Below, in pieces: positions 41,684 through 64,000 of a DNA stretch of 64,000 nucleotides. The translations under genes were made by a program, and so were the position numbers. The notes under the pieces were generated by a model. That model worked only from the letters and a program-made list of their open reading frames with translations, was not told where the DNA came from and made no database searches. The DNA lies in NCBI GenBank assembly GCA_942490825.1, contig CALNYG010000003.1:68105-132104 (forward strand), given 5' to 3'. How positions within the stretch are numbered: position 1 is the stretch's first letter; each line of letters starts with the position of its first letter. The DNA is from Candidatus Moraniibacteriota bacterium. Its GTDB lineage: Bacteria; Patescibacteriota; Minisyncoccia; Moranbacterales; GCA-2747515.

Positions 41684-42622
41684 CTAATTCCTTTTTATTA
41701 TATAATATTTTTTTAAAAATTTTTTTGGAGAAAATATTACAAATCTAATTTTTTCTTTCCATACGAAATATTGCTCTATCAATTTCCAAAATATAGACGA
41801 TTTCATGAATTTAATCTTGAAATCATTTTTATTATTCTTGTTATTTATTTTCTCAAAAAAACTATATGTTCTAAGAAATAAATTTTCATTAAAAATATCT
41901 GGTCTTTTTTCCCTGATCTTTTGTATAGATAAAAAAATATTATGTTTTAAATCGAATTTAACTCCGCTTGTAAACATATCACTTTCATTATGTAATCTAT
42001 AATAATATAAAATTTCTGGTATTACATATAACTTCAAATTATGCTCTACAAACTTAAGCCAGATGCCATAGTCCTGAAAACTACTATATCTTTCACTCCA
42101 AAAATCTATTTCTTTAAGATCTTTTTTACGAAAGGCAGCATTGGCTCCTCCTGCACAATTTTGAAAAAATAATTTAGGCAAAATTAAGCCCTCTGGAATA
42201 TAAGCATAATTAATATTATTTTTTTTTGTATAGTTTTTCCCATTTAAAAATGACCCATAGCCACATGTTACAGCAGAAATATTTTCGTTATTTTCAAAAA
42301 TTTGCATATATTCATAGATATATTGCTCATTTAAAACATCATCACAATCAACTCCAAAAATAATATTTCCTTTTGCTCTCTTTGCTCCAGCAGTCATTGC
42401 TCCAGAAATTCCTTTATTTTTTTGATTTAATATTTTTATATTATCATAATCCTTATTTATTTTATTTAAAATTTCAATAGATTTTTTAGAAGTTGATCCA
42501 TCATTTACAATAATGATTTCATCAACTTTTCTTGTTTGCTCATATAAACTTTTAATAGTTTCAAAGACAAAAGCATCACCATTATAAAATGGAATAACTA
42601 CTGATAACTTATTTTTTTTCAT
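41684..42622 (-). CDS. GT2-family glycosyltransferase
   Basis: LSVVIPFYNG...IIIVNDGST...GVDCDD (DxD). Confidence 0.85.
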   Translation of the reverse strand: MKKNKLSVVIPFYNGDAFVFETIKSLYEQTRKVDEIIIVNDGSTSKKSIEILNKINKDYDNIKILNQKNKGISGAMTAGAKRAKGNIIFGVDCDDVLNEQYIYEYMQIFENNENISAVTCGYGSFLNGKNYTKKNNINYAYIPEGLILPKLFFQNCAGGANAAFRKKDLKEIDFWSERYSSFQDYGIWLKFVEHNLKLYVIPEILYYYRLHNESDMFTSGVKFDLKHNIFLSIQKIREKRPDIFNENLFLRTYSFFEKINNKNNKNDFKIKFMKSSIFWKLIEQYFVWKEKIRFVIFSPKKFLKKYYIIKRN

Positions 42623-42713
42623 AATATAATAAAACTAATTAACTTTAAAACAGTAATTTTATGATAATCTAAAAGGTTATATCTTAAACTATTAATATTT
42701 TTAACTTTTCAAT

Positions 42714-43568
42714 CTATTTTTTAAATAAATTTAAAACTTTTGATTTAGCTTTACTAAAAAAACTTCTATTACACATCATTAACTCATAATGTTTTTGAGC
42801 AACAACAAAATCAACATTTTTTTCAAACAACTCTCTATGATTATTAACTATTGTAAATACTAATTGCTTGCAATTTTTATTAGAGGTTGCAACTTTTGAA
42901 TTTGATCTTACATAATAATTGAATAAAACTTCAGGAATAACTTTTACCTTACAACCCTGTTTTACAATACTAATCCAATGATCCCAATCTTCATAACCTC
43001 TTAAATTACTGTCATATCCCCCACTTATTTCATGAAAATTTTTTCTAAAACATGTCGCTGTTGGAACAGAAGAATTAATTAAAAAATCTTTTATGTCTAA
43101 ATTTTCTTTTGGCTTCCATAAAAATCTGCTACCTCCAAAAAATTGTGTGTAACAACTCACCAATCCTATTTCCTTATCCGCATCAAAAATATTTTTTGCT
43201 TTTTCTAAATATGTTGGCTCTATTGTGTCATCGGCATCTAAACAAAGTATATGATTTGATTGTGCTAACTTTATACCCTCATTTCTTGCCACTGATACGC
43301 CACTATTTTTGTTTAATCTAATTAAATTTACTTTATTATTAATTTTATTTAAAATTTCTTTAGTTTTTTCATCGGAAGAATTATCATCCACAACAATTAT
43401 TTCAACGTTTTTTAAAGTTTGTAAAAAAACTGAATTAATTGCTTTTATCAAAAAATTTCCTAAATTGTAACAAGGAATTATAACCGAAAAAGTCTTTTTT
43501 TGCACTTCTAAGTCAAAGTCCTTCTCTTTTTTGATTTGTGATATTTTATCCATATTGTATACAACCAA
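42714..43568 (-). CDS. GT2-family glycosyltransferase
   Basis: FSVIIPCYNLGNFL...IIVVDDNSSD...CLDADD. Confidence 0.85.
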   Translation of the reverse strand: MVVYNMDKISQIKKEKDFDLEVQKKTFSVIIPCYNLGNFLIKAINSVFLQTLKNVEIIVVDDNSSDEKTKEILNKINNKVNLIRLNKNSGVSVARNEGIKLAQSNHILCLDADDTIEPTYLEKAKNIFDADKEIGLVSCYTQFFGGSRFLWKPKENLDIKDFLINSSVPTATCFRKNFHEISGGYDSNLRGYEDWDHWISIVKQGCKVKVIPEVLFNYYVRSNSKVATSNKNCKQLVFTIVNNHRELFEKNVDFVVAQKHYELMMCNRSFFSKAKSKVLNLFKK

Positions 43569-43573
43569 TAAAA

Positions 43574-44302
43574 TTAACGTTCATTCTTAATAGAACAAAA
43601 AGTAATGTTATTAGAAATTCCATTATACTTAGTTACAAAACCTAATTCATTATCTAAAAAATAAACTATATCTAAGCCAAAATCATTATAAACAAGTGAG
43701 CCATTTAGATCAATTGGGGAACCATGATAATGTTTTGGTTGTAAAAAAACATCATCGTTACCGCTTGTATCAACTCTCTTAAGTGTTAGCCCTCCTAGGC
43801 GAATAGGAACGGTAAAAATATGCATGCCACCATTTTTCAAAACACGTCGGATTTCTTTAAACGCCTTTTTATAATCCCTTATATGCTCAAATATATCAGA
43901 TGTAATAATTAAATCAAATGTTGAATCATCATAAGTTAAATTCTCCAAGTTTTGACATTGGATGCCATCCTTATAATCTCCTGCAGCAATATCCTCCCAA
44001 TAATAAGAGTTACTATAAGTACTAATATTATTGAAATAATTTCTAAAAGGACCTATTATTCCAGGTTCATACACAGATAATTTTTCTTTAACAACTAACT
44101 TAACAAAGTCATTAATATCATTTTTTGAGCACAAATCAAAATTACTTTTTATCATCGCAAATTGTTCTTGATATCTCAAAGAAGATCCGCATTTAGGACA
44201 GCAGAAACCTTCTCTTATGCTGTCACTTATGCTATTTTTACTTTTTTTTACAAAGCTACCTTTATAAAGACAGATATCACATATTTTTTTTATTTTTTCC
44301 AT
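43574..44302 (-). CDS. class I SAM-dependent methyltransferase with an N-terminal zinc ribbon
   Basis: CDIC...CCPKCGS zinc ribbon. Methyltransferase core DLIITSDIFEHIRDYKKAFKEIRRVLKNGGMHIFTVP. Confidence 0.7.
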   Translation of the reverse strand: MEKIKKICDICLYKGSFVKKSKNSISDSIREGFCCPKCGSSLRYQEQFAMIKSNFDLCSKNDINDFVKLVVKEKLSVYEPGIIGPFRNYFNNISTYSNSYYWEDIAAGDYKDGIQCQNLENLTYDDSTFDLIITSDIFEHIRDYKKAFKEIRRVLKNGGMHIFTVPIRLGGLTLKRVDTSGNDDVFLQPKHYHGSPIDLNGSLVYNDFGLDIVYFLDNELGFVTKYNGISNNITFCSIKNER

Positions 44303-44315: not shown

Positions 44316-47300
44316 CTATTTAATTATTTTAGCCAAAATATTATCAACAATATTATCCCATCTATATTCAGATAAATATGATTTATTATTTTTTCTACTT
44401 AAATCTTTTTTCAAAACTTCTGGAATTAAATTTATAAACTCATTATTATTTTTTGCCACATATAATTTATCATATTCGATATCTAAACCTTCTAAATTTG
44501 TTGAAAGAATTTTTTTATTTAAAGATGCATACAAATATAATTTTAACGGATTCATATTTTTTGTCATTTCATTGAACTTGTGTGGAATAATGCATAAATC
44601 AAAAAACTTTATATATTTAATTGCTTCAGCATAAGTACGAACTCCAATAACCTTAATGTTTTTAATGTTTTCAATCTTTTTAATGTCATTTTTTGCTCTA
44701 TGAAAAGATCCAATTAACACTATTTGTACATTTGGATATTTAATAGCAACTTCTTTTAATAAATCAAAGTTAAACCGTAAAGAATCCATATTTCCTGTAT
44801 ATCCTAAAATAGGTTTATTGATAAGTTCCATATCTTTAGGTATTTGCCAACTTGCGACCTCCTTTTTGTTAAAACTCTCACACCCATTTTCAAATTTATA
44901 TATAGGAATATTTAAATCTGTAACTATTTTTTTACAATAATCATACATATTATTATTATTGCAAAAAATAATATTACTTTTTTTTAAAATCTTTTCATAT
45001 TTAGCATAATATACTTCAGAATTATCTTTTTCATCAAATGAACCTGCATAATCAATAACATCTGATATAACTTTATATGGTTTTAATTTACCTACAATAT
45101 AGGATGAATCATCAATCAATGGACAAAACCAAAAGTAAGCCCTATCTATATTAATACCAGCATTATTAATTTCATTTTTAATATATTCAACATACTCATC
45201 AGCAGAATATTTATCATACAAATAGACCCTCCTCGAAATATCTTTTTCATCTGAATAGTTAGCAATTCTATTAGTAGTATTCTCAAAAACAAAACTATTT
45301 TGGGAATGTTTAAATTTACTTTCTTTTTTTAATTGATTTAATTGGCTCTCGCTTATTGGTTTATCAAAATGTAAAATCTTTCTAACTTTTTTATTCTTTA
45401 ATAAATACTTCACCATCATATCCGATCTACGACCATAAATATTAGAATCATTTTGTTTCCAAAAAAAAACCACATCTATTCCTTCGCTACTAGAATCACT
45501 TTTGCATTTATCTTCCATAAAATTTAAAAAACTGTCAACCTTGTCCATTTTAGAATCAACTAAGCCGCATTCACTCTTAAAAATGCTTTTTAAAGTTTTA
45601 TTAGCATATTCATAACTTAAATACTCAATAAAATATTTTCGATTCTTAATAGCACTAACCTTAAATTGATTATAATTATTAAATATATGATCAATTTTTT
45701 TAGGTAATTCTGATATATTTTCCAAAACTTCAATACAACCTAAAGATATAAACTTTTCTAGCGGTTTTATTTTTGTGCTTAAAATTGGAATTTCCATAGA
45801 AAGAGCATCTGAAATTTTTGATGGTATTTGAGATTTTGAAATTTCTGAGTTAATATCTTGTAATAAACACACTAAATCAGCAGCAGATAAAAATGCTGGT
45901 AATTTATCAAAGTCCTGATTTTCATAAACCTTAACAGATTTATTTCCTTTAAGAGCTTCTTTGACCTCTTCCTGAATAACGCTTCCTATGATACAAAATT
46001 TATAATTTATATTACCAATTTTCTTTAAAGCATCTGCCACCTCAATGATTCCTTTATGTTTATGCGGTGTGCCTACAAACATTATAACTTTATCATCTTT
46101 TTTGTAACCTAAAGCTTTTCTAATTTTATCTCTATTATAAAGTTTAGGATTAAAATATTGTTCATCTCTTATATGGGGAATTATTGTTCCACCATATTTT
46201 TCTTGTAAAGAATAGTTTGAAACTATAATTTTTTCAAATGTACAGGCTAGCGATTCTGTATATCTATTCCAGGTTTGACTATGTGCAACAGCAAATTCTT
46301 TAGATTCTTCATTAAATATTTCTTCCGCTTCAGAAATAGAATCTATTCTTGTTTTATTTCTTTCAAATGATAACTCATCGTCATCAACATCTAATATTAT
46401 TTTTGCATTAGTTTTTCTGCGTAACAAAAATCCTAACAATAAAGATGTCATTTTAGGTTTGCATACAATAATATAGTCAGCATCTTTATCTTTTATTGAT
46501 TTTATTATTCTTTGATAAAGTAATGGGAAAGTTGCTCCATCAATAATATACAAACAAAAATCTCTTAAATAAGTCAGGGGTTGCCATAATGATTTACCAT
46601 AAAAAGGAAAGAGGACGCCCATCATTTCTACGTTAAAATCTTTTTTCAAAACATCATAAAACAAGAAGGCTCTAGCAACAGGATTATGACTTACTGACCA
46701 TGCTACTACAACAACTTTTTTTCTATTTTTTAGATTTTCGTTATAAGCAGCATCATTTTTCTTTAAATAAAATCCATCAATATTAGGATTTTTTTCATAA
46801 TAAAAACGAATATTTCTTTTAAAAATATTCCTGATTTTTGAAGATATTTTTTTGAAAAATAAAAAAAATAAGTAAGGATTTTTTATTCCTTTTTTAATTT
46901 CATTTTTATAATATCTAATCATTTCTCTAATTTTCCAAAGTTTTAAATATTTCATTTTATTGAAAAATCTATTTTTTAATATTGAATTAGGAAAAACTGA
47001 CTTTTTTACTTTAATAATTGCTTTTATAATCAACCTAGGAATATCAAATATAGAATTTATTTTAATATTTTTATTTCCAAATAAAAATATTATAAAAAAA
47101 TTAACTGGAAAAGTAATTAATTTATAGGGCTTCTTAACTGATCGAAAAAATAAACTGCCCAACTTAAAAGATTTTGAATTTTTAATGGCTTTAATCCCCT
47201 TATCTCTATTTTTAATCTCCTTATCTTTATCTTTTAACCAATTGTCTCTATTTTTAATCTCCTTATCTTTATCTTTTAACCAATTGTCTCTATTTTTTAA

Positions 47301-48542
47301 ATTTCTATCTCTATTTTCAATCTGTCTGTCTTTACGATTAATAACTTCGTCCTTTACTTTGCGAACAGTTCTCAACCTCAAATATTTATAAAAATAATCT
47401 TTTAAATCTGGATAAAAACTAAATAAAATTTCTTCTAATTTTTTATATCTGTCATTTAATTTTTTGTTAAGATCTTCTTTTTTACCAATATCATGATAAA
47501 GAACTAATCGTGGATCATAATAAAATGACTCAATGTTGTAACCATAAAATTTTATCATACGATAAAATAAAATAATTCCTTCATGTCCATAAAGAGGATC
47601 TTCTTGTCCGCCAACTTTAATATAATCTCCTTTACGCATAACAGTATTTCCTTCTGTTATAGGTAAAATAGAAAATGATTCATTTCCTAAATCATACCAC
47701 ATTGGAGGCATTTCTGCACTCTGTTTTATTGTCAAAACCTTTCCTCGAACAGCAATTTTTGATTTATCTTTTTCAAAAATATCGATTGCAGCTTCAATAT
47801 AATATTCATTTACATAACCATCTGCATCGATAAATGCAAGTAGTGGTGCTTCTGCATGAAGTGCTCCTATATTACGTCCAGCAGACGGACCAACATTATT
47901 TTTCAAATCAATATGAGTAAGAGGATATTCTTTTAGTCTTTTTTTAGTTTGATCACTTAAACCATTATCAACTATAATCAATTCAAAATCATTAACTGTT
48001 TGATTCTGAAAATGATCTATATTTCTTATTAAATCATCGCATTCATTATAAGCAACAATAATTACAGATACTTTTGGATTAATTGCTTTTTGGTTATAGT
48101 GAAAAATATTTTTAATATCATTTTTATATTTTTCTTTTGAAATTAACTTTTCTTTTTTATGAAGTTTTATATGAGATACGTCTGAATAATCTCCTGTAAA
48201 TTTGTCAGTCTTTTGTTTTTTTAATAAAGATAACTTTGCTAAAACTTTTTCTACATTTAAATTTTTATATTTATCTAAAGCATAATTTTGAAACTTTTTT
48301 GAAAAATCAAGAGGAATTTCTTTTTTATATTTTATATTTATTGCTTGATTTTCATTTTCAAAATTATAAAAAGTTGAATAATTATCATAATAAATATTTT
48401 TTATATCATTTGAATAATCATTAATAAACTGTGTTGTTGCACCTCCTGTTCGATAAGTTGCAATTTGATCATTTACATAAACACTTTTATAGTCCTTTAA
48501 AATTAATCTGATTATTAACCCATAATCAGCTGGGAAGTCCAT
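44316..48542 (-). CDS. giant multidomain glycosyltransferase (GT2 + coiled-coil repeats + anchor module + two GT-B/GT4-like regions)
   Basis: 1408 aa. GT2 region VSVIIVAYNECDDL...LIIVDNGL...FIDADG. Repeats NRDNWLKDKDKEIK x2. Anchor module NSKSFKLGSLFFRSVKKPYKLITFPVNFF. GT4-like region MFVGTPHKHKGI... The N-terminus is colinear with the middle of 49121-51028. Confidence 0.8.
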   Translation of the reverse strand: MDFPADYGLIIRLILKDYKSVYVNDQIATYRTGGATTQFINDYSNDIKNIYYDNYSTFYNFENENQAINIKYKKEIPLDFSKKFQNYALDKYKNLNVEKVLAKLSLLKKQKTDKFTGDYSDVSHIKLHKKEKLISKEKYKNDIKNIFHYNQKAINPKVSVIIVAYNECDDLIRNIDHFQNQTVNDFELIIVDNGLSDQTKKRLKEYPLTHIDLKNNVGPSAGRNIGALHAEAPLLAFIDADGYVNEYYIEAAIDIFEKDKSKIAVRGKVLTIKQSAEMPPMWYDLGNESFSILPITEGNTVMRKGDYIKVGGQEDPLYGHEGIILFYRMIKFYGYNIESFYYDPRLVLYHDIGKKEDLNKKLNDRYKKLEEILFSFYPDLKDYFYKYLRLRTVRKVKDEVINRKDRQIENRDRNLKNRDNWLKDKDKEIKNRDNWLKDKDKEIKNRDKGIKAIKNSKSFKLGSLFFRSVKKPYKLITFPVNFFIIFLFGNKNIKINSIFDIPRLIIKAIIKVKKSVFPNSILKNRFFNKMKYLKLWKIREMIRYYKNEIKKGIKNPYLFFLFFKKISSKIRNIFKRNIRFYYEKNPNIDGFYLKKNDAAYNENLKNRKKVVVVAWSVSHNPVARAFLFYDVLKKDFNVEMMGVLFPFYGKSLWQPLTYLRDFCLYIIDGATFPLLYQRIIKSIKDKDADYIIVCKPKMTSLLLGFLLRRKTNAKIILDVDDDELSFERNKTRIDSISEAEEIFNEESKEFAVAHSQTWNRYTESLACTFEKIIVSNYSLQEKYGGTIIPHIRDEQYFNPKLYNRDKIRKALGYKKDDKVIMFVGTPHKHKGIIEVADALKKIGNINYKFCIIGSVIQEEVKEALKGNKSVKVYENQDFDKLPAFLSAADLVCLLQDINSEISKSQIPSKISDALSMEIPILSTKIKPLEKFISLGCIEVLENISELPKKIDHIFNNYNQFKVSAIKNRKYFIEYLSYEYANKTLKSIFKSECGLVDSKMDKVDSFLNFMEDKCKSDSSSEGIDVVFFWKQNDSNIYGRRSDMMVKYLLKNKKVRKILHFDKPISESQLNQLKKESKFKHSQNSFVFENTTNRIANYSDEKDISRRVYLYDKYSADEYVEYIKNEINNAGINIDRAYFWFCPLIDDSSYIVGKLKPYKVISDVIDYAGSFDEKDNSEVYYAKYEKILKKSNIIFCNNNNMYDYCKKIVTDLNIPIYKFENGCESFNKKEVASWQIPKDMELINKPILGYTGNMDSLRFNFDLLKEVAIKYPNVQIVLIGSFHRAKNDIKKIENIKNIKVIGVRTYAEAIKYIKFFDLCIIPHKFNEMTKNMNPLKLYLYASLNKKILSTNLEGLDIEYDKLYVAKNNNEFINLIPEVLKKDLSRKNNKSYLSEYRWDNIVDNILAKIIK
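47203..47286 (-). repeat. 2 x 42-bp perfect in-frame tandem repeat (NRDNWLKDKDKEIK), plus degenerate copies to ~47335
   Basis: The unit TCTCTATTTTTAATCTCCTTATCTTTATCTTTTAACCAATTG starts at 47203 and 47245. Confidence 0.9.
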
Positions 48543-48627
48543 ACTTTCATCAAAACATTGTATTTTCTCTAAAGAAAAATTGATGTTTTTGACGTTTAAA
48601 CATTGCTTAAATGAACAAATGGTATCT

Positions 48628-49116
48628 CTATAGAAAAATTTCTAAATTTCCTTTAAATATCCAAATAAATTCCCCTTCTTCGGTTTGCTTAATTGCATCT
48701 GCATAAGAAAAATCAGCATTATTTTTTTCTAATGCTTCAACTGACTTTTCAACTGCTTGTTTATTATGATAAAAATCATCACTATTTAACAATGCTAAAT
48801 ATTTCCCTTTTGCCTCTCTAATTCCTTTATTCATTGCGTCATAAATACCAGCATCCTTTTCAGAAATATATCTTATCCATCCCTTGTCTGCATATTCTTT
48901 GATTAGATCTAAAGTTCCATCATTTGATGCACCATCAACTATAATATGTTCAATATTTCCATAAGTTTGATCGTGAACGGATTTTAAGTTTTGTTCAAAA
49001 AATTCTTTCCTTCCTGATTTTATCAAATTAAAAACTACTGTTACTATTGTAACTAAAGGTTGCTTGCTATTATATTGTTCTTCGTGATTAGACATCAATT
49101 TATATTCAATATACAA
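48628..49116 (-). pseudogene. detached N-terminal GT2 fragment of the giant GT (paralog of the 49121-51028 N-terminus)
   Basis: About 430 bp is identical to 50583-51013. The link to ORF 44316-48542 (48543-48640) carries several indels and stops relative to the intact paralog, and it cuts through the GT-A fold. Confidence 0.7.
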
Positions 49117-49120
49117 ATTA

Positions 49121-55182: not shown

Positions 55183-55256
55183 TTTTTTGTTTTTAGGTAT
55201 TTAATTACCTATTCATTTTACATTATCTATAGTTTGGTAGCAATACCAAAATTTTA

Positions 55257-56987
55257 TTATTTATTTATCAAAATCCTTAAAAAATTAATTGGAAATGTTA
55301 ATAGTTTATATGGTTTTTTAATTGAACGAAAGACTAATTCTCCTAATCTGAACGATTTTGAATTTTGAAGATCAAAAATAATAAAGTCTTGATTCTCTAT
55401 TATACTAACTTTTTTTTGTAATGTCTTTTTTAATTCCACAATTTCTTGTCGTTGAAAGTTCTTAGCACAAAGAGCTTTTTGAACATTTGATGGTTGTAAT
55501 GTCTTTTTTAATTCCACAATTTCTTTTCGTTGAGAGTTCTTAGTACAAGGATCTTTTTGAACATTTAATGGTTGTAATGTCTTTTTTAATTCCACAATTT
55601 CTTTTCGTTGAGGGTTCTTAACACAAGGAGATTTTTGAACATTCGAGGATTGTGACAAAAAGTTGAGTAAATTTGGAAAACAATTTTCATCAATAAAAGG
55701 AACTTTATTCTTAAGCAATGAAATATCTAATTTTTCATTACTTTCAACCAACTCTTTAAGTAAATCAGCGTATTTCTTACCTTGCCTTTTTCTTGAAAAA
55801 TTTTGTTTTGCATATTCTACACAGTCTTTACCACTAATATTACTATTCAAAACTTCATAGACAGCGTCTGCAAAATCATTAACATTTCCTAATTCCACAC
55901 ATCTGCCTCTCAAATCATCTCCTACAATTTCCTTAATAGCACCAGTGTCAAAACCGACAATAGGTGTACCACAAGCAACTGATTCTGCAGCAGTATTTGA
56001 AAAAGTTTCTGCTAAAGAAGGTATAACTGTTATATTAGATTGTGAATACAATTTCGCTAACTCTTTTTTATCATTAATAACACCAACATTTATAATTGGA
56101 TATGGACAACCAATTTTGATCATTCTACTCGATCCAGAACCAGCAACCAGCAACTGTAATTTAAAATCTGGATGTTTCTTCTTAATAATATTTAGAGAAT
56201 CCAAAAATTCATTAAAGCCTTTAACATTACTTCCATGAGAAGGAAGGTGAAATACCGTTGGAATATCACATCTTAAGTTAAGATTTTTTTTAAAACTACC
56301 ATCTTTACTAGGTTTAAATATATCCAAGTCAATAGAATTGCCAATAACTTTAATTGAGCATTTAGATAAAATTGGAGATTTTTCAACTATTTTTTTAGTA
56401 TGTTCACTTAATAAAAAGATTGTAATATTGTCTGTATTCCAGTATTCTTTTTTTATATCAAAAACTTTTTTTGGAAAATTACCTGCTTTATCATTTAGTA
56501 ACTGTGGACAACTTTCACAATTTTTTAACCAATTTTTACAACCATGAAAATAATGACAGCCACCCGCTAATAAATTCATATCTCGAATAATCATAACAAC
56601 GGGAATTCCCAAGTTTGTTAAATAACCAATATCTTCAGCTGTAAGAAATCGAGCAACCCATTGTAAAACTATAACATCTACATCTTTTACAAGCTTATCT
56701 AATGTTTTTCTGTTCAATTTAGGCTCATTTAAACTAAAGATAGTATTATCCTCTTTTTTATTTTTTTCTAACTGTATTTCATCGTAATTTAATCCTATAT
56801 CAGGATTAAGAAAAATATAATTTTTTCCCTCATACATTCTATTGCTAGCTGTCTCTCTTGTTACAAGCTTTGAGTTAATACCATTTATCAAAAGTGAATC
56901 ATGCATACCTGCTGTAGCACACCCTGCCCCACCATACACATAACTTGTAAATATCAAAACATTCATTTTTTTATTATTTTTTTTCAT
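55257..56987 (-). CDS. GT4-like glycosyltransferase with tandem-repeat coiled coil and C-terminal anchor module
   Basis: GT-B core (...IPSLAETFSNTAAESVACGTPIVGFDTGAIKEIV). 3 x 26-aa repeats. C-terminus QNSKSFRLGELVFRSIKKPYKLLTFPINFLRILINK. Confidence 0.8.
   Translation of the reverse strand: MKKNNKKMNVLIFTSYVYGGAGCATAGMHDSLLINGINSKLVTRETASNRMYEGKNYIFLNPDIGLNYDEIQLEKNKKEDNTIFSLNEPKLNRKTLDKLVKDVDVIVLQWVARFLTAEDIGYLTNLGIPVVMIIRDMNLLAGGCHYFHGCKNWLKNCESCPQLLNDKAGNFPKKVFDIKKEYWNTDNITIFLLSEHTKKIVEKSPILSKCSIKVIGNSIDLDIFKPSKDGSFKKNLNLRCDIPTVFHLPSHGSNVKGFNEFLDSLNIIKKKHPDFKLQLLVAGSGSSRMIKIGCPYPIINVGVINDKKELAKLYSQSNITVIPSLAETFSNTAAESVACGTPIVGFDTGAIKEIVGDDLRGRCVELGNVNDFADAVYEVLNSNISGKDCVEYAKQNFSRKRQGKKYADLLKELVESNEKLDISLLKNKVPFIDENCFPNLLNFLSQSSNVQKSPCVKNPQRKEIVELKKTLQPLNVQKDPCTKNSQRKEIVELKKTLQPSNVQKALCAKNFQRQEIVELKKTLQKKVSIIENQDFIIFDLQNSKSFRLGELVFRSIKKPYKLLTFPINFLRILINK
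55416..55650 (-). repeat. 3 x 78-bp in-frame tandem repeat (NVQK..C.KN.QRKEIVELKKTLQP)
   Basis: The AATGTCTTTTTTAATTCCACAATTTCT landmark recurs at 55420, 55498 and 55576. Confidence 0.9.
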
Positions 56988-56989
56988 AA

Positions 56990-58285
56990 TTATTTACCCA
57001 ATAAAATCCTTAAAAAATTTATTGGAAATGTTAATAGTTTATATGGTTTTTTAGTTGAACGAAAGACTAGCGTTCCTATTCTGAATGATTTTGAATTTAT
57101 TATAGCATCTTTCTCTTTTTCTTTCTGAGTTATCATAGCATCTTTCTCTTTTTCTTTCTGAGTTATTATAGCATATTTCTCTTTTTCTTTCTGAGTTATT
57201 ATAGCATTAATCTCTTTTCCTTTCTGAGTTATTATAGCATTAATCTCTTTTCCTTTCTGAGTTATTATAGCATATTTTTGCTGAAGTTCTTGATTTTTTT
57301 GTGCTATTTTTTGATCTTTTTGCTGAAGTTCTTGATTTTTTTGTGCTATTTTTTGATCTTTTTGCTGAAGTTCTTGATTTTTTTGTGCTATTTTTTGATC
57401 TTTTTGCTGAAGTTCTTTATTTTTTTGAGTTAGCTTACATTTAAACTCATTCAATTGATTATCTTTTAATTTAACCCTACCTTCTTGTTTTTCTATTAAA
57501 ATTTTATAACTTGATATTTTTTTTAAATTAAATTTATTTTCCTTTTGAAAATTAACTTTTTCCAAATTAATAAATTCCTCCCAGAAATCAAAATCGTATC
57601 TTTCCCAGGCATGACAACCAAAAGGCAACTTTTTATTTCTCATTTCATACAATCTCTTTGGTTGACATTCAAAAGAAAAATTTATTGCATTATTAACTGG
57701 AGCCACTTTAAAATTCTCTTTAATTTTTTTTGCTTCAAAAGCAAAAAATCCATCTTCATTTGAACCTTTTGCAATAAAATTATCAATAATGTCCCTATTA
57801 TCCTCATCACAATCTAAGACCTCTATGAAACTACTTATTTTTCTCAAAGAAAATCCTCCATTTCCTCCAACCTCCATTAGCTCAGACTTTTCATCACTAG
57901 AACTAAAATTTTTAAACCATGGAGCCCCAATATAATCAAAGTCCTTTTCACACCAATACTCTAATTTATCTCTAAAAACATAAGCATCTAATTGATAAAT
58001 AAGCATAAACTCGTAACTTTTGAATCTATCATAAAAATTTTTACTCATCATCAACCTATTATAGCTCTTTACGCTTTCAAAAAAAGAATCATCAAATTTT
58101 TCTATTGTATAGTTTACATTATGTTTCTTCAAAATAACTTTATATCTTTCTAAAGTTAAACTATTTGGACAAATTAAAGAAAATGAATATTTATTTAAAA
58201 TTTTACAACATTGAACAAAAGAAGATTCTTCAAATCCACTCATTTTCTCATTATATATTGGTATTGCTATTATTACTTTTTTCAT
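56990..58285 (-). CDS. DUF5672-like putative glycosyltransferase with tandem-repeat coiled coil and C-terminal anchor module
   Basis: YQLDAYVF...FDYIGAPWF...GGNGGFSLRK. Repeats QKNQELQQKDQKIA x3 and AIITQKxKExx x5. C-terminus NSKSFRIGTLVFRSTKKPYKLLTFPINFLRILLGK. Confidence 0.7.
   Translation of the reverse strand: MKKVIIAIPIYNEKMSGFEESSFVQCCKILNKYSFSLICPNSLTLERYKVILKKHNVNYTIEKFDDSFFESVKSYNRLMMSKNFYDRFKSYEFMLIYQLDAYVFRDKLEYWCEKDFDYIGAPWFKNFSSSDEKSELMEVGGNGGFSLRKISSFIEVLDCDEDNRDIIDNFIAKGSNEDGFFAFEAKKIKENFKVAPVNNAINFSFECQPKRLYEMRNKKLPFGCHAWERYDFDFWEEFINLEKVNFQKENKFNLKKISSYKILIEKQEGRVKLKDNQLNEFKCKLTQKNKELQQKDQKIAQKNQELQQKDQKIAQKNQELQQKDQKIAQKNQELQQKYAIITQKGKEINAIITQKGKEINAIITQKEKEKYAIITQKEKEKDAMITQKEKEKDAIINSKSFRIGTLVFRSTKKPYKLLTFPINFLRILLGK
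57099..57402 (-). repeat. two adjacent in-frame tandem arrays: 5 x 33 bp (57099-57263) and 3 x 42 bp (57277-57402)
   Basis: 33-bp units start at 57099, 57132, 57165, 57198 and 57231. 42-bp units start at 57277, 57319 and 57361, with a partial fourth. Confidence 0.9.
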
Positions 58286-58309: not shown

Positions 58310-59593
58310 TTAAAATAATTTATTTTTTATTTTTTTTAATCTCTTATTTAAAAATAAATACAGCAAACTCGGATGTCTTGATCCTTGTTTTATACTATCT
58401 TTATAGTGTATATAGATATTTCTAATTATCCAAAATTTTGATTGCTTTATTAAGTTAATATCCTGTTCTTTTTGTTGAATAATAGACTCTTGCTTTTTAA
58501 TTTTTTTATTTTTATTTTTATTTAAAGTTAATTGTTTTTCTATCTCATTATCTTTTTCACTAATAATCAATTCTAACCCCTCACGTGTTTTAAATAAAAA
58601 GTCATAACTACCTTCTAAAAAATTAATCTCATTAAATAATTCTAATTTTTTAATTTTAGAGTTAAATTTTTTATTTTTTGCTTCTTTATATACATTCTCC
58701 AATTTACTTACAACATTGTCAACACCATTTTCTTTTACAACAAGCTCCCTCAATCTCTTTCCTGAGTCAGGGTTATATTTTAGAATTTCTTTCTTAAAAT
58801 CTTCAACTGAATATTCTTTACCAGAAAACCTACCCGATAAACTATTCTTTCTAAAATTAAAGAAATTATCTTCATTGATCATTCCATCTCCTCCATGCAT
58901 ATCAAAAACAATGACATTCCTCTCACATGCCATAGACTCTAGAACGCCTCTTCCTATCGTTACAACTATGTCTGCCTTATTTATCCACTTCTCAACATTT
59001 TTAACTGAATTATTAGGAAGTCCAACATGTAAAACATTTATATCTAATTCTATACAAGCTTTCTCCACAACCTCTTTCACTTTTGGAATATAGTGATTGC
59101 TTAAAACTAAAAGATTTTTTGGCTTTTTATCTACCTTATTAAAAGCATAAAACTTTTCAGCATCAACAAAATTTCTGACTAATTTAATCCTATCATCACT
59201 TATATTATGATTTTGAATAAAATTATTTCTAACTTCCTCGCTAACACTCAAGTAATTCTGTATTCCTAAATCAATTGAAGGCGGCTGCTCTAATTTAGGA
59301 ATAACTCCATGAGACATAAAAATCATAGGCACATCAGAAAAAACCGATCTTGCAATTACAGCAGTTGTATTATGTTGTGCATGTATAACATCAAAATCTA
59401 TTTTTTTCAATCCTATAATATTATTAGTAACTGTTATGCCTTTTTTTCTAATTTCATCAGCTATTACACCTAAAACAGGAGAATAAATGAATACTTCATG
59501 TCCTCTCTTTTGTAATTCTAAAGCTAAACCTTTTGTAAAAAGCTCTGAGCCTGTGTACTGACATAAATAAAAGTTGGTTATTAATATTTTCAT
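58310..59593 (-). CDS. GT4-like glycosyltransferase with a C-terminal coiled coil and basic tail
   Basis: Preferred start MKILITNFY at 59593; the ORF-track start is at 59659. The tail KFWIIRNIYIHYKDSIKQGSRHPSLLYLFLNKRLKKIKN is homologous to an internal segment of 44316-48542. Confidence 0.7.
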   Translation of the reverse strand: MKILITNFYLCQYTGSELFTKGLALELQKRGHEVFIYSPVLGVIADEIRKKGITVTNNIIGLKKIDFDVIHAQHNTTAVIARSVFSDVPMIFMSHGVIPKLEQPPSIDLGIQNYLSVSEEVRNNFIQNHNISDDRIKLVRNFVDAEKFYAFNKVDKKPKNLLVLSNHYIPKVKEVVEKACIELDINVLHVGLPNNSVKNVEKWINKADIVVTIGRGVLESMACERNVIVFDMHGGDGMINEDNFFNFRKNSLSGRFSGKEYSVEDFKKEILKYNPDSGKRLRELVVKENGVDNVVSKLENVYKEAKNKKFNSKIKKLELFNEINFLEGSYDFLFKTREGLELIISEKDNEIEKQLTLNKNKNKKIKKQESIIQQKEQDINLIKQSKFWIIRNIYIHYKDSIKQGSRHPSLLYLFLNKRLKKIKNKLF

Positions 59594-59671
59594 AATCTTT
59601 ATAAAAAATTTGGTTTTTAATAAATATATGATACCATAAATATACATTTTTAAAAACATAAAAAAATAAAT

Positions 59672-60394
59672 ATGAAATCATTTTTATCAATTTTTTTCAA
59701 AAAAAAACAAAAGTTGGTTTTTATAATAGGTGCTCCCAGAAGTGGCACAACATGGCTTTGGAGTCTTATGACGTCTTTTGAAAAAGTTAAAGCAATTGTC
59801 AGAGGAGATTTTGAACCTAATAGCCCTTATATTGAATCAGGAGCTTTTATTTTATACCCTGAAGAAAAAACTCTTTCAGTAATAAACAAAAAAATAAAAG
59901 ATAACCCTAATAAGATTATTATAGAAAAAACCCCTACTCACATAACACGCACAGGAAAAATACTAAAGTTGTTCCCACATGCAAAAATAATATACATTCA
60001 GCGTGATCCTAGAGCTGTAATATCCTCAATGTTATATTCACATTTTTACGAATTTGCCAAAGACATTGATGATGCAATACTAAAATACAAAAAATCTTAT
60101 AATGGCATTAAGCCTCATTTAAAAAACAAAAATCTTCACATCCTGTATTATGAAGATTTAAAAAATGATACTTCTAAAGAAATTTTAAGAATTTTTGATT
60201 TCTTAAAAACCAAAGTTAATAAATCTGAAATTGATAAATCTGTAATAGAAAATACCAATAAGGTAAAAGTTAAAATTAAAGGTGCTTTTAGAAAAGGGGA
60301 GATTGACAGTTATAAAAAAGATTTAACGGGAAAACAAATTAAAACAATAGAAGCTGAATTAAGTGAAATAATGAAAGAACACAATTATTTATAA
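59672..60394 (+). CDS. sulfotransferase (Sulfotransfer_1/3 type)
   Basis: 5'-PSB loop IIGAPRSGTTWLW. 3'-PB motif IYIQRDPRAVISS. The only plus-strand gene in the cluster. Confidence 0.8.
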   Translation: MKSFLSIFFKKKQKLVFIIGAPRSGTTWLWSLMTSFEKVKAIVRGDFEPNSPYIESGAFILYPEEKTLSVINKKIKDNPNKIIIEKTPTHITRTGKILKLFPHAKIIYIQRDPRAVISSMLYSHFYEFAKDIDDAILKYKKSYNGIKPHLKNKNLHILYYEDLKNDTSKEILRIFDFLKTKVNKSEIDKSVIENTNKVKVKIKGAFRKGEIDSYKKDLTGKQIKTIEAELSEIMKEHNYL

Positions 60395-60558: not shown

Positions 60559-61491
60559 TCATTCCTTATAATTTTCTAAAAACCATTTATAAGTTTTCTC
60601 AACTCCCTCTTTTAATTCAATTTTATGTTTCCATCCAATATTATGAAGTTTTGAAACATCAAGCAATTTTCTATACATTCCATCTGGTTTAGACAAATCA
60701 TGTTGAATTTTTCCATTGAATCCAACTACATTTTGAATAATATTTGTGATTTCATTTATCGTGTTATCAACGCCTGTACCTACATTTACATGTTTAAAAT
60801 CACTATAGTTTTCCATTAAAAATAATAATGCGTCAGCAAGATCATCAACATACATTAACTCACGATAAGGCTTTCCAGTTCCCCAAACAATCACTTCGGA
60901 AGAGTTATTTACTTTTCCGTCATGGAATTTTCTCAATAATGCCGGTAGCAGATGCGATTTTTCATAATCAAAATTATCATTGGGTCCGTATAGGCTGGTC
61001 GGCATTGCAGAAATAAAATCACATCCATATTGTTTCCGATAATAATCGCACATCTTCAAACCGGAAATTTTAGCTAATCCATATGCTTCATTCGTTGGTT
61101 CCAATAATCCGCTTAATAAAGAATCTTCTTTGATTGGCTGTGTAGCATTTGCTGGATAAATGCATGAACTTCCTAAATATAAAAGTTTAGTAACTTTATG
61201 TGTGTATGCTGCATGTATAACATTATTTGCAATCATTGAATTAATATAATAAAAGTCAGCGGGTGCATTCATATTTGCCCAGATACCACCTACTTTTCCA
61301 GCACTCACAAATACAAACTCAGGCTTTTCTTTTTGAAAAAAATCAAAAACTTGATTTTGATTTGTCAGATCTAATTCTGAATGACTTTTATAAATAATAT
61401 TTCTAAAACCTTTTTTTTCTAGATCTCGTAAAATTGCACTGCCAACTAATCCATTGTGTCCAGCTACATAAATTTTTGAATCCTTATTCAT
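60559..61491 (-). CDS. fcl: GDP-L-fucose synthase
   Basis: IYVAGHNGLVGSAI Rossmann motif. GSSCIYP and YGLAK catalytic motifs. Directly downstream of gmd. Ends in TGA. Confidence 0.9.
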   Translation of the reverse strand: MNKDSKIYVAGHNGLVGSAILRDLEKKGFRNIIYKSHSELDLTNQNQVFDFFQKEKPEFVFVSAGKVGGIWANMNAPADFYYINSMIANNVIHAAYTHKVTKLLYLGSSCIYPANATQPIKEDSLLSGLLEPTNEAYGLAKISGLKMCDYYRKQYGCDFISAMPTSLYGPNDNFDYEKSHLLPALLRKFHDGKVNNSSEVIVWGTGKPYRELMYVDDLADALLFLMENYSDFKHVNVGTGVDNTINEITNIIQNVVGFNGKIQHDLSKPDGMYRKLLDVSKLHNIGWKHKIELKEGVEKTYKWFLENYKE

Positions 61492-61495
61492 AATT

Positions 61496-62551
61496 TTATT
61501 TTTTTGACTTTAAATCAACGCCCTCTTTTTTTAAATCAAATTCCATCATAATTTTAACCAACTCTTTAAATTTAGTTTTTGGCTGCCATTTTAATTTTCG
61601 TTTAGCTTTGCCAGGATCACCTAAAAGTAATTCTACTTCAGCCGGACGATAATAACGAGGATCTATTTTAATAATAATTTTTTTAGTTTTTTTGTCTATT
61701 CCAACTTCTTTTTCCTTTTTACCCTTCCATTGCAATTCAATACCCGCTATTTTACAAGATTCTTCTATAAATTCTCTAACAGAATGAGTTTCTCCGGTAG
61801 CCAAAACAAAATCATCAGGTTTGTCTTGTTGTAACATTAACCACATACCTTCAACATAATCTTTTGCATAACCCCAATCTCTTTTAGAATCTAAATTACC
61901 AAGATATAAGCAATCTTGTTTACCAGCTAATATGCGAGATAATGCAATAGTTATTTTTCTGGTTACGAAAGTTTCTCCTCGACGTGGTGATTCATGATTA
62001 AATAAAATTCCATTGCACGCATAAATTCCATAACTCTCGCGATAATTCACGGTAATCCAGTATGAATATAATTTAGCACAGGCATAAGGAGAACGAGGGT
62101 AGAATGGCGTAGTTTCTTTTTGAACAGGCTCTTGGATTAGTCCATATAATTCACTCGTGGAAGCTTGATAAAATTTAGTTTTAATTTTAGAGTCTTTTAT
62201 AGCATCTAATAATCTTAATGTTCCAACCCCAGTTACATCAGCGGTATATTCAGGATTATCAAAACTAACTCCAACGTGACTTTGGGCAGCTAGATTATAT
62301 ATTTCATCAGGTTTAATTTTTTCAATAATTCGAGAAATACTTGAACTATCCGAAAGATCTCCATAATGTAAAAATAATTTCACATCATTAACATGAGGAT
62401 CTTGATATAAATGATCGATCCTTCCAGTATTAAAGGAGCTAGATCGTCGTATCATTCCATGAACTTCATAATTTTTTTCTAAGAGTAGTTCAGTTAGATA
62501 AGCACCATCTTGACCAGTAATTCCAGTTATAAAAGCTTTCTTTTTTTTCAT
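61496..62551 (-). CDS. gmd: GDP-mannose 4,6-dehydratase
   Basis: [66 protein letters not shown]. Confidence 0.92.
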
Positions 62552-62587
62552 AATCTAATTATAGTTATTTAAATTCAAATCAACCAA

Positions 62588-63328
62588 TTAAGCATTTATT
62601 ATTCTTCTATATTCCCTCACAACTTCATCAGAATTTCCAATTGCTTTAATTTTACTTTGATCTAAAGCCATGGCCCTATCACAATCCTGCTTAATAATAT
62701 CAGGGTTATGATTAACTAAAACAATAGTTTTTCCCTGCTTTTTAAAATCTTCAAAAACATCCAAACACTTTTTCTTAAAACTAATATCTCCCACGGCCAT
62801 AACTTCATCCATAAGCAAAATATCTCTATTAGCATGAATTGCTACAGAAAAACCTAATCTTCCTCTCATTCCTGAAGAATAATTTTTAACCTTTTGATCA
62901 ATAAATCTACCAATCTCAGAAAATTCCACGATATCATTAAATTTTTCCTCGATATCCTTTTGACTCAATCCTAAAATGATCCCATTCATAAAAATATTAT
63001 CCCTACCAGAAAGCTCATTATTAAAACCAATCCCTAATTCTAAAAAAGGCGACATCATACCGTCTATTTCAATTTCGCCTTTATCTGCCTCATAAACGCC
63101 TGCTAATATTTTTAATAAAGTAGACTTACCAGAACCATTTCTTCCGATAATGCCAAAGGTTTCACCTTTCTTAACTTCAAAAGAAACATCATCTAAAGCA
63201 TTAAACTTTTCGTAATTTCTTTTAGAAAAAATATTAACAAAAGCGCTTCGCATACTGTCTATTTTTTCATGAGGAATTTTAAATGTTTTTGAAACATTCC
63301 TCACTTCTATTGCATTCTCTTTATTCAT
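62588..63328 (-). CDS. polysaccharide/teichoic-acid-type ABC exporter ATP-binding protein (Wzt/TagH-like)
   Basis: Walker A GIIGRNGSGKSTLLK. Signature YSSGMRGRLGFS. Walker B ILLMDEV. At 246 aa it has no C-terminal carbohydrate-binding extension. Confidence 0.85.
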   Translation of the reverse strand: MNKENAIEVRNVSKTFKIPHEKIDSMRSAFVNIFSKRNYEKFNALDDVSFEVKKGETFGIIGRNGSGKSTLLKILAGVYEADKGEIEIDGMMSPFLELGIGFNNELSGRDNIFMNGIILGLSQKDIEEKFNDIVEFSEIGRFIDQKVKNYSSGMRGRLGFSVAIHANRDILLMDEVMAVGDISFKKKCLDVFEDFKKQGKTIVLVNHNPDIIKQDCDRAMALDQSKIKAIGNSDEVVREYRRIINA

Positions 63329-63356
63329 AACGATTTTTAAAATTCTATCATTAAAA

Positions 63357-64000
63357 TTAAATATTTTCTGCTATACCCCCTGATGTTTTTTTGTATACAA
63401 AAAAACTAAAAACAAACCCAATAATAATCAATCCTACAAAAGTATTCACCTGCCATAGATCAGGAAAGTGATCATTTATCAAAGACTCCTTCGTAAAATG
63501 AATAATAAATGCCATAGGATTAGCTAATATTAACTGCTGCACATTTTCTGGCATTATTGTTAAAGGATAAATAATTGGAGTTGCGTAAAAAAGCATCCTA
63601 GTAATAACATCCCAAATCATGGAAAGATCTCTAAATTTAACGTAAAGAGAAGCTGTTAAAAAAGAAAAGGCTACTATAATTACATAAGTCAAGAAAGAAA
63701 AAAAGATAAAAATCATGATAGCACCAAAACTAGGTATCCATCCCTTCCATAAGAAAAATATTGCAACAACAATCAAACTCATACAATAGATTAGAACGGA
63801 ATGTATTGTAGAAGCTAAAATTATCGCCCATCTAGGCACATAGGTTTTTGTAATTAATTGTGACTTTGCTAATAAAGATTTCATTCCTGAAGATGTCCCT
63901 TCATTAAAAAAAGTAAACATCATTATCCCTGTAATCAACTGTAGTGAATAGAATGGATCTCCACCTCCTCGAGCAAAAATTGAGGAAAAAACAAAATTTA
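63357..64000 (-). CDS. ABC-2 type permease (Wzm/TagG-like), 5' end beyond the window
   Basis: Six TM segments are visible. The frame stays open from the TTG at 63938 to the window edge, so the gene is truncated by the window. Confidence 0.8.
   Translation of the reverse strand, partial: NFVFSSIFARGGGDPFYSLQLITGIMMFTFFNEGTSSGMKSLLAKSQLITKTYVPRWAIILASTIHSVLIYCMSLIVVAIFFLWKGWIPSFGAIMIFIFFSFLTYVIIVAFSFLTASLYVKFRDLSMIWDVITRMLFYATPIIYPLTIMPENVQQLILANPMAFIIHFTKESLINDHFPDLWQVNTFVGLIIIGFVFSFFVYKKTSGGIAENI

Follow-up and report, generated by a model that had tools for sequence, protein, structure and literature searches.

We analysed a 64,000-nt stretch of a Candidatus Moraniibacteriota contig (CALNYG010000003.1, positions 68,105 to 132,104; hereafter the window), and in particular the gene block at window positions 41684-64000. 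The block encodes enzymes that make and recycle 3'-phosphoadenosine 5'-phosphosulfate (PAPS) by way of adenosine 5'-phosphosulfate (APS), two sulfotransferases (ST1 and ST2), GDP-fucose synthesis, many glycosyltransferases (GTs) and an ATP-binding cassette (ABC) exporter, and it is probably a cluster for a sulfated, exported glycan. Genes were called from a six-frame listing of open reading frames (ORFs) together with Pfam and NCBIfam profile scans. The E-values of the hidden Markov model (HMM) matches behind the calls span 1e-10 to 1e-178, which excludes chance. A scan of the window for promoter-like sites (128, with 137 expected) and terminators (4, with 3.7 expected) is uninformative in such AT-rich DNA, and operon boundaries were therefore drawn from gene spacing alone. 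The features of the block are as follows.

41684-42622, minus strand: GT2 glycosyltransferase (100.8 bits)
42714-43568, minus strand: GT2 glycosyltransferase (114.1 bits)
43574-44302, minus strand: S-adenosylmethionine (SAM) methyltransferase with an N-terminal Cys4 zinc ribbon (Methyltransf_11, 46.8 bits)
44316-48542, minus strand: multidomain protein of 1408 amino acids (aa) with GT2 (83.2 bits), a coiled coil, an internal tail motif and GT1 (56.1 bits)
48628-49116, minus strand: disrupted N-terminal GT2 domain, a pseudogene fragment of a paralog (repeat and translation match to the intact copy)
49121-51028, minus strand: double-GT2 glycosyltransferase, 635 aa (Glycos_transf_2, 169.4 bits, in two stretches; shared C-terminal tail)
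51159-51920, minus strand: ST1, PAPS sulfotransferase of the Sulfotransfer_2 (PF03567) type (53.5 bits, cutoff 22)
52018-53079, minus strand: sat, ATP sulfurylase of the homo-oligomeric type (ATP-sulfurylase, 284.5 bits, and PUA_2; PRK04149, 422.5 bits, cutoff 387)
53119-53943, minus strand: cysQ-like 3'(2'),5'-bisphosphate nucleotidase, a phosphatase for 3'-phosphoadenosine 5'-phosphate (PAP) (Inositol_P, 169 bits; TIGR01331 CysQ, 200.2 bits)
53924-54466, minus strand: cysC, APS kinase (APS_kinase, 187 bits; TIGR00455, 209 bits, cutoff 138.7)
54475-55247, minus strand: insertion sequence of the IS1 family (insA/insB'), 773 bp (DDE_Tnp_IS1, 77.7 bits, over cutoff)
55257-56987, minus strand: GT1/GT4 glycosyltransferase, 576 aa (Glyco_trans_1_4, 75.2 bits; three 78-nt repeats and the shared tail)
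56990-58285, minus strand: DUF5672 protein, a candidate glycosyltransferase (DUF5672, 186.5 bits; coiled coil encoded by tandem repeats, and the shared C-terminal tail)
58310-59659, minus strand: GT4-family glycosyltransferase, 449 aa (Glyco_transf_4, 46.9 bits), the conserved partner of ST2
59672-60394, plus strand: ST2, PAPS sulfotransferase of the Sulfotransfer_3/1 (PF13469/PF00685) type, TPST-like (92 and 77 bits), divergent from the GT4 gene
60559-61491, minus strand: fcl, GDP-L-fucose synthase (NF047922, 472.6 bits), beginning 4 nt after gmd
61496-62551, minus strand: gmd, GDP-mannose 4,6-dehydratase (TIGR01472, 590.7 bits, cutoff 415)
62588-63328, minus strand: wzt, ABC ATPase, 246 aa (ABC_tran, 80.5 bits)
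63357-64000, minus strand: wzm, ABC-2 permease (ABC2_membrane, 40.1 bits, profile positions 55-203)

The PAPS genes lie among the GT genes. HMM searches recovered sat, the cysQ-like gene and cysC where the initial annotation had placed them, and the Sat translation shows the motifs QTRNPPHRSHE and GRDHAG. The three had been described as contiguous and overlapping; an overlap exists between cysC and cysQ (20 nt), whereas a gap of 39 nt lies between cysQ and sat. On the other side of sat, ST1 follows after a gap of 97 nt. The IS1 element now sits upstream of cysC. If it and one copy of its target duplication are removed, only 9 nt separate the stop codon of the GT1 gene from the ATG of cysC. Because of this short original spacer, the cysC-cysQ overlap and the position of ST1 just after sat, the PAPS genes are, judged from spacing, original internal members of the GT operon. 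Sulfur assimilation genes were searched for among the window ORFs of at least 100 aa. As had been stated before, no PAPS/APS reductase (cysH) or sulfite reductase was found in this set, nor was there a match to cysK, cysE or a cysteine synthase.

ST1 and ST2 had been described as two unrelated sulfotransferases with PAPS-binding motifs, and this was borne out: a pairwise comparison detected no similarity between them, and the quoted motifs are conserved in alignments of 30 (ST1) and 33 (ST2) homologs. Both calls also held under profile-HMM and structural scrutiny, with scores over cutoff, motifs kept and a predicted local distance difference test (pLDDT) of about 92. The ST1 match covers positions 8-250 of the 252 in the Sulfotransfer_2 profile, and the protein has HVPKCGGTT (the 5'-phosphosulfate loop) and RNPIDRIISHY (the 3'-phosphate site). 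In the ST1 family (49 homologs found, 30 aligned), HxPKCGG and RxPxDRxxSHY are invariant or nearly so; R104, P106, R109 and S112 are invariant, and P32, K33 and G36 nearly invariant. AlphaFold2 models of both proteins were built with their homolog alignments. The ST1 model (pLDDT 92.8) has the sulfotransferase alpha/beta fold, and Foldseek matched it to 4ndz, 3f5f and 5t05 at E-values of 1e-7 to 1e-5 with probability 1.00. Among solved structures, those of heparan sulfate 2-O- and 6-O-sulfotransferases match best, and the family profile matches HS2ST at E 2.5e-13. From its profile and modelled fold, ST1 is best read as a carbohydrate O-sulfotransferase, a sugar being the predicted acceptor. 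Its nearest homologs belong to Desulfobacterota, Cyanobacteria and Planctomycetota, and the surroundings of these nearest homologs (L084 and L086; labels from L001 to L100 denote the related genome and metagenome loci compared with the window) are not glycan loci.

The ST2 family (55 homologs found, 33 aligned) retains PRSGTTW and RDPRAVxSS, with R23, G25, T27, R111 and S119 invariant. The ST2 model has a pLDDT of 92.4, and Foldseek matched it to SULT, mycobacterial Stf9 and TPST at E-values near 1e-8. On motif and model grounds, the use of PAPS as cofactor by ST2 can be regarded as secure. The NoeE model scored 23 bits against ST2 (cutoff 500), and membership of that family is not claimed. 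The close ST2 subfamily is small, with 16 of 1.84 billion cluster representatives at E<=1e-30. An archaeal homolog of ST2 (L099) is surrounded by transposases.

The remaining parts of a glycan pathway surround these genes. The initial annotation had listed gmd, fcl, Wzm/Wzt, a SAM methyltransferase and at least eight GT domains in one minus-strand block. HMM searches recovered all of the named genes in place, and eight intact GT domains plus one within the broken fragment exceed Pfam cutoffs in the cluster. The single-strand picture holds for all of these genes but not for ST2, which is on the plus strand. A third GT domain in the 1408-aa protein is unconfirmed (C-terminal 410 aa, GT-B-like, weak, E 0.011). 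The GT4 protein likely starts at MKILITN near 59593, and no solved sequence relative of DUF5672 was found. An ABC-2 permease and a Wzt-type ATPase adjoin the GT genes, as in pathways of the Wzm/Wzt type. The wzm frame is open to base 64000, so that its N-terminal 55-60 residues or so lie beyond the window end. The best NCBIfam models for Wzt are TagH and galactan Wzt, both under cutoff. The window Wzt does not have Wzt_C, the C-terminal carbohydrate- or cap-binding domain, and 36 nt separate wzt from gmd. Wzt_C is an optional domain in the Wzt family. The Wzt proteins of close relatives, 62-67% identical, all carry it. Pfam scans of the window ORFs found no KpsD, KpsE, KpsS or KpsC domains; Wzm/Wzt alone was found.

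We consider it likely, from gene content and the modelled sulfotransferases, that the block at 41684-64000 is a Wzm/Wzt-dependent glycan assembly cluster with its own sulfate-activation and PAP-recycling module, and that its product would be sulfated in the cytoplasm and then exported. In the proposed pathway, Sat would convert sulfate and ATP to APS in the cytoplasm and CysC would phosphorylate APS to PAPS. About 8-10 GT domains would extend a polyprenyl-linked chain on the inner membrane face, with GDP-L-fucose made by Gmd and Fcl as one donor. ST1 would sulfate sugar hydroxyls of this polyprenyl-linked glycan before export, and ST2 probably likewise. We place sulfation before export because PAPS is cytoplasmic and the ST1 and ST2 translations show no visible signal peptide or membrane span. 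The SAM methyltransferase may methylate or cap the glycan, adding O-methyl groups or a terminal cap, and the CysQ-like phosphatase would hydrolyse the inhibitory by-product PAP. Wzm/Wzt would then export the sulfated chain for display at the cell surface, where peptidoglycan, a protein or a lipid are candidates for the final acceptor.

The linkage of PAPS genes to exporter and GT genes recurs in related loci. On a metagenome contig (L089) the order is Wzt (with Wzt_C), CysC, CysQ and Sat, which are 51-64% identical to the window proteins; a methyltransferase gene and a GT1/GT2 fusion come next. Another locus (L097) has GT4/ST2, CysQ, CysC, Wzt and Wzm, its CysC being 73% identical to that of the window. 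A third (L098) reads Wzm-Wzt-ST2-GT4-DUF5672, then an APS kinase fused to GT1, then a double GT2 gene, an order syntenic with GT4-DUF5672-GT1-cysC...GT2x2 in the window. L097 and L098 share GT4/ST2, DUF5672, CysC, CysQ, Wzt and Wzm with the window, at 44-73% identity and in related order; the DUF5672 ortholog of L098 occupies the same position and is 49.5% identical. The fusion is a single 586-aa ORF (L098 4478-6238, minus strand) in which residues 8-155 match APS_kinase and residues 481-550 match Glycos_transf_1. Such a fusion is hard to reconcile, as far as the sequence goes, with a housekeeping role. Wzm is 44-61% identical to its counterparts in L087, L097 and L098. GT4 orthologs, 50-57% identical, adjoin ST2 in six relatives (L082, L087, L095, L097, L098, L100), and with the window included all seven loci examined show the divergent pairing of ST2 with GT4. 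Five of the six relatives (L082, L087, L095, L097, L098) also have Wzt and/or APS kinase near ST2. The locus labelled L095/L096, from a metagenome-assembled genome (MAG) named Candidatus Dojkabacteria, has ST2 beside a Wzt::GT2 fusion and Wzm. A GC-rich Pyrinomonadaceae MAG (Acidobacteriota; L046) encodes Sat::CysC, three sulfotransferases, Wzm, Wzt (with Wzt_C), a methyltransferase and Gmd/Fcl.

These loci bear directly on whether Sat, CysC and CysQ could serve ordinary assimilatory sulfate activation toward cysteine and merely happen to sit in a glycan locus. The three enzymes are also the first steps of the PAPS-dependent assimilatory route, and the part of the genome inspected is the window. 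We nevertheless regard this explanation as very improbable. No cysH, sulfite reductase, cysK or cysE turned up among the scanned ORFs, and the genes are embedded in a GT operon by the 9-nt original spacer upstream and the sulfotransferase 97 nt downstream. The linkage of CysC, CysQ and Sat genes to Wzt and sulfotransferases is kept in L089 and L097, and L098 has the kinase-GT fusion.

Several observations count against a sulfated, exported and in particular fucosylated product. The product is a prediction from the genes. The cysQ-like protein scores below the 228.8 cutoff of TIGR01331, its best NCBIfam model, and Fcl falls slightly under the 500 equivalog cutoff of its model. The search for cysH, cysIJ and sir covered the 64-kb window. 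Within the window we recognised no initiating phosphoglycosyltransferase of the WecA/TagO type, no ligase and no LCP protein, and saw no sulfate transporter; the initiator and the ligase or LCP protein may lie past the window end. The window also encodes no GT10/GT11-type or other recognisable fucosyltransferase family, and gmd/fcl were not seen in the available DNA of the closest syntenic relatives, L097 and L098. Of the co-occurrence that the initial annotation suggested looking for in related genomes, a part was found: PAPS genes are linked to Wzt, sulfotransferase and GT genes in L089, L097 and L098, and in L046 to Gmd/Fcl as well, but L097 and L098 lack visible gmd/fcl. Likewise, of the earlier proposal that the module feeds sulfation of a fucose-containing exported polymer, the core of sulfation and export stands on the sulfotransferase checks, the gene linkage and the lack of cysH in the window, whereas "fucose-containing" is not established. 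Fucose in the polymer is plausible from the gene content.

Other ST1 relatives do occur near fucose genes. They were collected with an alignment-based query in the genome scan, a single ST1 sequence as query having given no match. ST1-family genes lie near a GT11 fucosyltransferase (L001) or GDP-fucose genes (L027, L028, L046), and L076 carries gmd/fcl beside a partial ST1 match. Across 80 ST1-relative genome loci, a strong Gmd match lies within 10 kb in 6 and a strong Fcl match in 4. Two of these cases are MAGs of DPANN archaea, in which ST1 relatives lie near fcl/gmd and a Wzt-like ATPase (L027, Nanoarchaeota, 2-6823; L076, Woesearchaeota, 3818-10540), and other ultra-small episymbionts may have similar glycan decoration. 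Sat, CysQ, ST1, ST2 and gmd/fcl stand together in one block only in the window, among the loci compared.

The acceptor of ST2 is a further weak point. The ST2-family profile is closest to TPST1/2, which it matches over its full length (E 2e-28), and then to the sulfotransferase domains of the CurM/OLS polyketide synthases, which suggests that the acceptor of ST2 may not be a sugar. The sulfotransferases, mainly ST2, could thus modify a non-glycan target: a protein or peptide tyrosine as with RaxST/TPST, or else a lipid or small molecule. PAPS from the module would then be used for this modification, and the exported glycan would carry partial sulfation or none. The top structural matches of ST2 (cytosolic SULTs, Stf9 and TPST) and its transcription from the strand opposite the operon fit this alternative. 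We think it quite unlikely all the same. ST1 is nearest to carbohydrate O-sulfotransferases and sits directly after sat within the GT operon, and ST2 keeps its divergent pairing with GT4 in every locus examined, with Wzt and/or APS kinase near it in most relatives. Few bacterial carbohydrate sulfotransferases have solved structures, so that little about the acceptor of ST2 can be read from its closest structural match. The Sulfotransfer_3 family also includes the carbohydrate sulfotransferases NodH and Stf0.

The present state of the cluster raises a different doubt. The IS1 element has perfect 11-bp terminal inverted repeats (GGTATTGCTAC / GTAGCAATACC) and is flanked by an 8-bp target duplication (AAAATTTT). 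The domains of insA are slightly under the Pfam cutoffs (Zn_ribbon_InsA, 24.8 bits, E 1.8e-5; HTH_Tnp_IS1, 19.7 bits, E 6.4e-4). A second copy 26 kb away (28495-29267) is 99.6% identical, has its own 8-bp duplication (CGATTTTT) and overlaps the 3' end of an ORF at 29233-30756. Because the copies are nearly identical and their separate target duplications are intact, transposition of IS1 is, on this evidence, recent. The insertion lies in the 9-nt spacer between GT1 and cysC, 8 nt upstream of the cysC ATG and co-oriented with the operon. It now parts cysC-cysQ-sat-ST1 and the downstream GT genes from the upstream genes, and may be polar on all of them.

Farther downstream, one GT gene is broken. 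Within the fragment (48628-49116), 48629-48928 is identical to 50583-50882 over the 300 nt given by a repeat finder, and the protein match extends along nearly the whole length. The frame is then lost in a patch of about 100 nt, where there are in-frame stops and about five or six short indels, and translation could restart only at MDFPADYG. Sequencing error was rejected as the cause, because there are several indels, including 4- and 5-nt inserts, and not a homopolymer slip. In the tandem double-GT2 paralogs (48430-51028), the duplicated region outside the 300-nt identity is about 83-89% identical, a pattern that suggests recent gene conversion beside a decaying segment. Given both lesions, the pathway may be impaired in this strain.

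At its strongest, this argument makes the cluster a decaying or silenced remnant, with IS1 polar, one GT a pseudogene and no sulfated glycan made now. The closeness of the recent insertion to cysC and the indels and stops of the GT2 fragment speak for it, as do three genes split elsewhere in the window (NhaA, the ISL3 transposase and prephenate dehydratase/ACT, described below). We judge it unlikely. Reading frames are uninterrupted and catalytic motifs present in all PAPS genes, in ST1 and ST2 and in the remaining GT genes, and the broken GT2 domain is backed up by a complete paralog (49121-51028). The co-orientation of IS1 would allow read-through or an outward-facing promoter, by which the genes past the element may still be expressed. 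The insertion, the broken GT2, a Wzt without Wzt_C and the split genes all bear on present activity and not on the encoded function, which we still take to be assembly, sulfation and export of a glycan.

Whether the cluster belongs to this organism can be asked as well, as some homologs are distant. An assembly or binning artefact would have joined a cluster from outside the candidate phyla radiation (CPR) to CPR sequence. The taxonomy of the closest ST1 homologs (Desulfobacterota, Cyanobacteria, Planctomycetota) is in line with this, and some ST2-type loci lie beside genes unexpected in CPR: L082 has a sigma-54 activator and methyl-accepting chemotaxis protein genes nearby, and may not be from CPR. 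An artefact is, however, extremely improbable. Copies of one IS1 element lie both within the cluster and, at a distance of 26 kb, beside other genes. Database entries 100% identical to ST1, ST2 and MurA are each assigned to a contig of one and the same length (149,049 bp). GC content is uniformly low, about 25-30% in the cluster and 25-39% in the window. A protease gene next to the cluster has a counterpart in syntenic position in L097 (see below), and mosaic origin via horizontal transfer accounts for the distant homologs. At 13523-14836 lies a MurA homolog with 77% identity to Candidatus Moranbacteria / Patescibacteria proteins. Judged from its GC content, the shared IS1 and the Moranbacteria-like MurA, the cluster is native to the contig.

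Several of the assembly proteins share unusual sequence features. A C-terminal tail, NSKSF[KR]LGxLxFRSxKKPYKLxTFPxN, is common to four otherwise unrelated glycan-assembly proteins (sites 47072-47181, 49117-49226, 55256-55365 and 56989-57098; 69-88% DNA identity over 110 nt). The tails come after coiled coils encoded by tandem repeats, for example units of 21/33 nt at 57122-57463 in the DUF5672 gene and of 78 nt at 55416-55653 in the GT1 gene; slippage of the repeats could vary the length of the coiled coils. The internal position of the tail in the 1408-aa protein suggests a gene fusion in its ancestry. When the tail was searched for as a strict regular expression, no match came up besides the four copies in the window; tblastn finds a diverged tail in L097. 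The tail probably serves these proteins as a shared anchor, either to the membrane or in complex assembly.

Next to the cluster lies one gene that recurs beside clusters of this type.

37238-41185, plus strand: secreted S8 protease with three DUF5648 domains and SpoIID, 1315 aa (Pfam; signal-peptide-like N-terminus)

The protein has a fervidolysin-type prodomain, and there are internal repeats at 38590-39183 (90%) and 39198-40001 (99%). In five of seven loci (window, L082, L087/L088, L097, L100) the ST2-type cluster has a DUF5648 gene less than 10 kb away, a count made without phylogenetic correction on loci that may be mutually related. In L097 an S8-DUF5648 protein, 50% identical, adjoins Wzm, and L100 has a cadherin-DUF5648 protein. 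None of the 80 ST1-family genome loci has DUF5648. The domain is reported to be a three-bladed propeller. It has been linked to the recognition of O-antigen by BSAP toxins, and GH70 enzymes and endolysins contain it as a putative cell-wall-binding domain. Because DUF5648 is reportedly glycan- or cell-wall-binding and recurs beside the clusters, the S8-DUF5648-SpoIID protein is, by analogy, a candidate binder of the glycan, and the glycan may be a docking polymer for such secreted enzymes. A wider model, which we offer tentatively and hold to be rather doubtful, is that the cluster and the S8-DUF5648 protein form one conserved surface module of CPR-like bacteria. The sulfated, possibly methyl-fucosylated glycan would then be a secondary cell-wall polymer that anchors DUF5648 enzymes, which attach to or attack host cells; the coiled-coil and tail-bearing GTs would form one membrane-bound machine; and a terminal sulfate added by ST2 would act as an export signal (compare the cap-reading Wzt_C in relatives).

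Beyond the cluster, envelope and glycan genes abound in the window (5353-11499, 15555-20327, 23660-24613 and 34322-36572). These stretches encode LPG_synthase_TM, GT4, GH28, a PMT_2 GT-C, a DUF6541 membrane protein, GT1, two GT2 and an epimerase, and together with the sulfation cluster they may form a larger surface-glycan island. Near glycan-related genes, an intergenic repeat of about 160 nt occurs at 15023-15175 and 33865-34022, 18.8 kb apart, with 81-89% identity. It could be a shared promoter, a leader or a small element; an Rfam scan of the window gave no match. The window also encodes RtcB. Three genes, for an NhaA antiporter (4141-5319), an ISL3-family transposase (2773-3593) and prephenate dehydratase/ACT (32453-33344), are interrupted, each appearing as a pair of overlapping or adjacent ORFs, the result of either frameshifts (pseudogenes) or assembly errors.

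CPR/Patescibacteria are ultra-small and mostly episymbiotic, and to our knowledge almost nothing is known of their surface chemistry. If the proposed function is right, a sulfated, polyanionic glycan resembling glycosaminoglycans would be a candidate for host attachment, for phage resistance or for binding the cell's own secreted enzymes, and the ATP that these reduced genomes invest in PAPS would go to decoration and not to sulfur assimilation. The cluster also adds two compact bacterial sulfotransferase families, one carbohydrate O-sulfotransferase-like and one TPST-like, and the Sat-CysC-CysQ cassette and the natural APS-kinase::GT fusion are relevant to the engineering of sulfated polysaccharides. 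The most interesting lead is the DUF5648 protease recurring beside the clusters; the kinase-GT fusion and the lineage are also worth following up.

Single loci that bring together an ABC exporter, GTs, sulfotransferases and PAPS genes have been published for two bacteria with sulfated capsules, Vibrio sp. KMM 8419 and Cobetia marina KMM 1449 (PMC11641403, PMC11766843), and the window holds the gene set by which a sulfated-polysaccharide cluster is recognised there (PMC11641403). Like the window, these loci encode PAPS synthesis (with cysQ in Cobetia), sulfotransferases, many GTs and nucleotide-sugar enzymes next to an ABC exporter; assembly and sulfation are cytoplasmic and precede ABC export, as we propose here, and the Vibrio clusters also have mobile elements and a mosaic origin. 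They differ in using the heterodimeric CysDN (or CysN/C) where the window has Sat, and the KpsMTED/KpsSC group 2/3 capsule machinery of diderms where the window has Wzm/Wzt. Their chemically characterised products contain rhamnose, mannose and glucose, whereas the window is from CPR and its product is predicted from its genes. Cyanobacteria make sulfated extracellular polysaccharides with Wzx/Wzy- or ABC-dependent machinery and sulfotransferases (synechan Xss and related predicted units; PMC13125312). They likewise join sulfotransferases to canonical polysaccharide machinery, and ST1-family homologs are present in them. Synechan itself is of the Wzx/Wzy type, is regulated by XssQRS and draws PAPS from general metabolism, whereas the window has its own Sat/CysC/CysQ and none of those regulators. 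Given these published systems (PMC11641403, PMC11766843, PMC13125312) and the similar gene sets in L046, low-GC contigs and L095/L096, the view in the initial annotation that dedicated clusters are rare in bacteria was overstated. Its companion view, that they are undescribed for small-genome AT-rich lineages, holds within the full-text literature searched, in which we found no description of a sulfated-glycan or sulfotransferase pathway in CPR/Patescibacteria.

Among ABC-dependent glycan systems, the models are E. coli O8/O9a (WbdA/WbdD-Wzm/Wzt), TagGH and the Wzm/Wzt of mycobacterial galactan. The window resembles them in its Wzm/Wzt pair, multidomain polymerising GTs, coiled coils and potential capping methyltransferase. 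It differs from them in that Wzt_C is found in the closest relatives of its Wzt and not in Wzt itself, and in that no WecA/TagO initiator or ligase is found in the window. We know of no description of sulfation as a feature of the model ABC-dependent O-polysaccharide systems. The loci L046, L089, L097 and L098 are closer in content; their Wzt proteins carry Wzt_C, unlike that of the window, and L046 fuses Sat to CysC and L098 the APS kinase to a GT. We found no description of these four loci in the literature searched. NoeE of Rhizobium sp. NGR234 sulfates fucose in Nod factors. In the saccharomicin cluster, a CysC homologue, the APS kinase Sam35, supplies PAPS for fucose sulfation with Sam10 (PMC13291958). 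As predicted for the window, fucose derived from GDP-fucose is methylated and/or sulfated in these systems by a PAPS sulfotransferase, with a dedicated APS kinase in the case of Sam35; their products are oligosaccharide signals or antibiotics, whereas the product proposed here is an exported polymer. The general design of the window's cluster is already known, and the advance lies in its lineage and in its detail.

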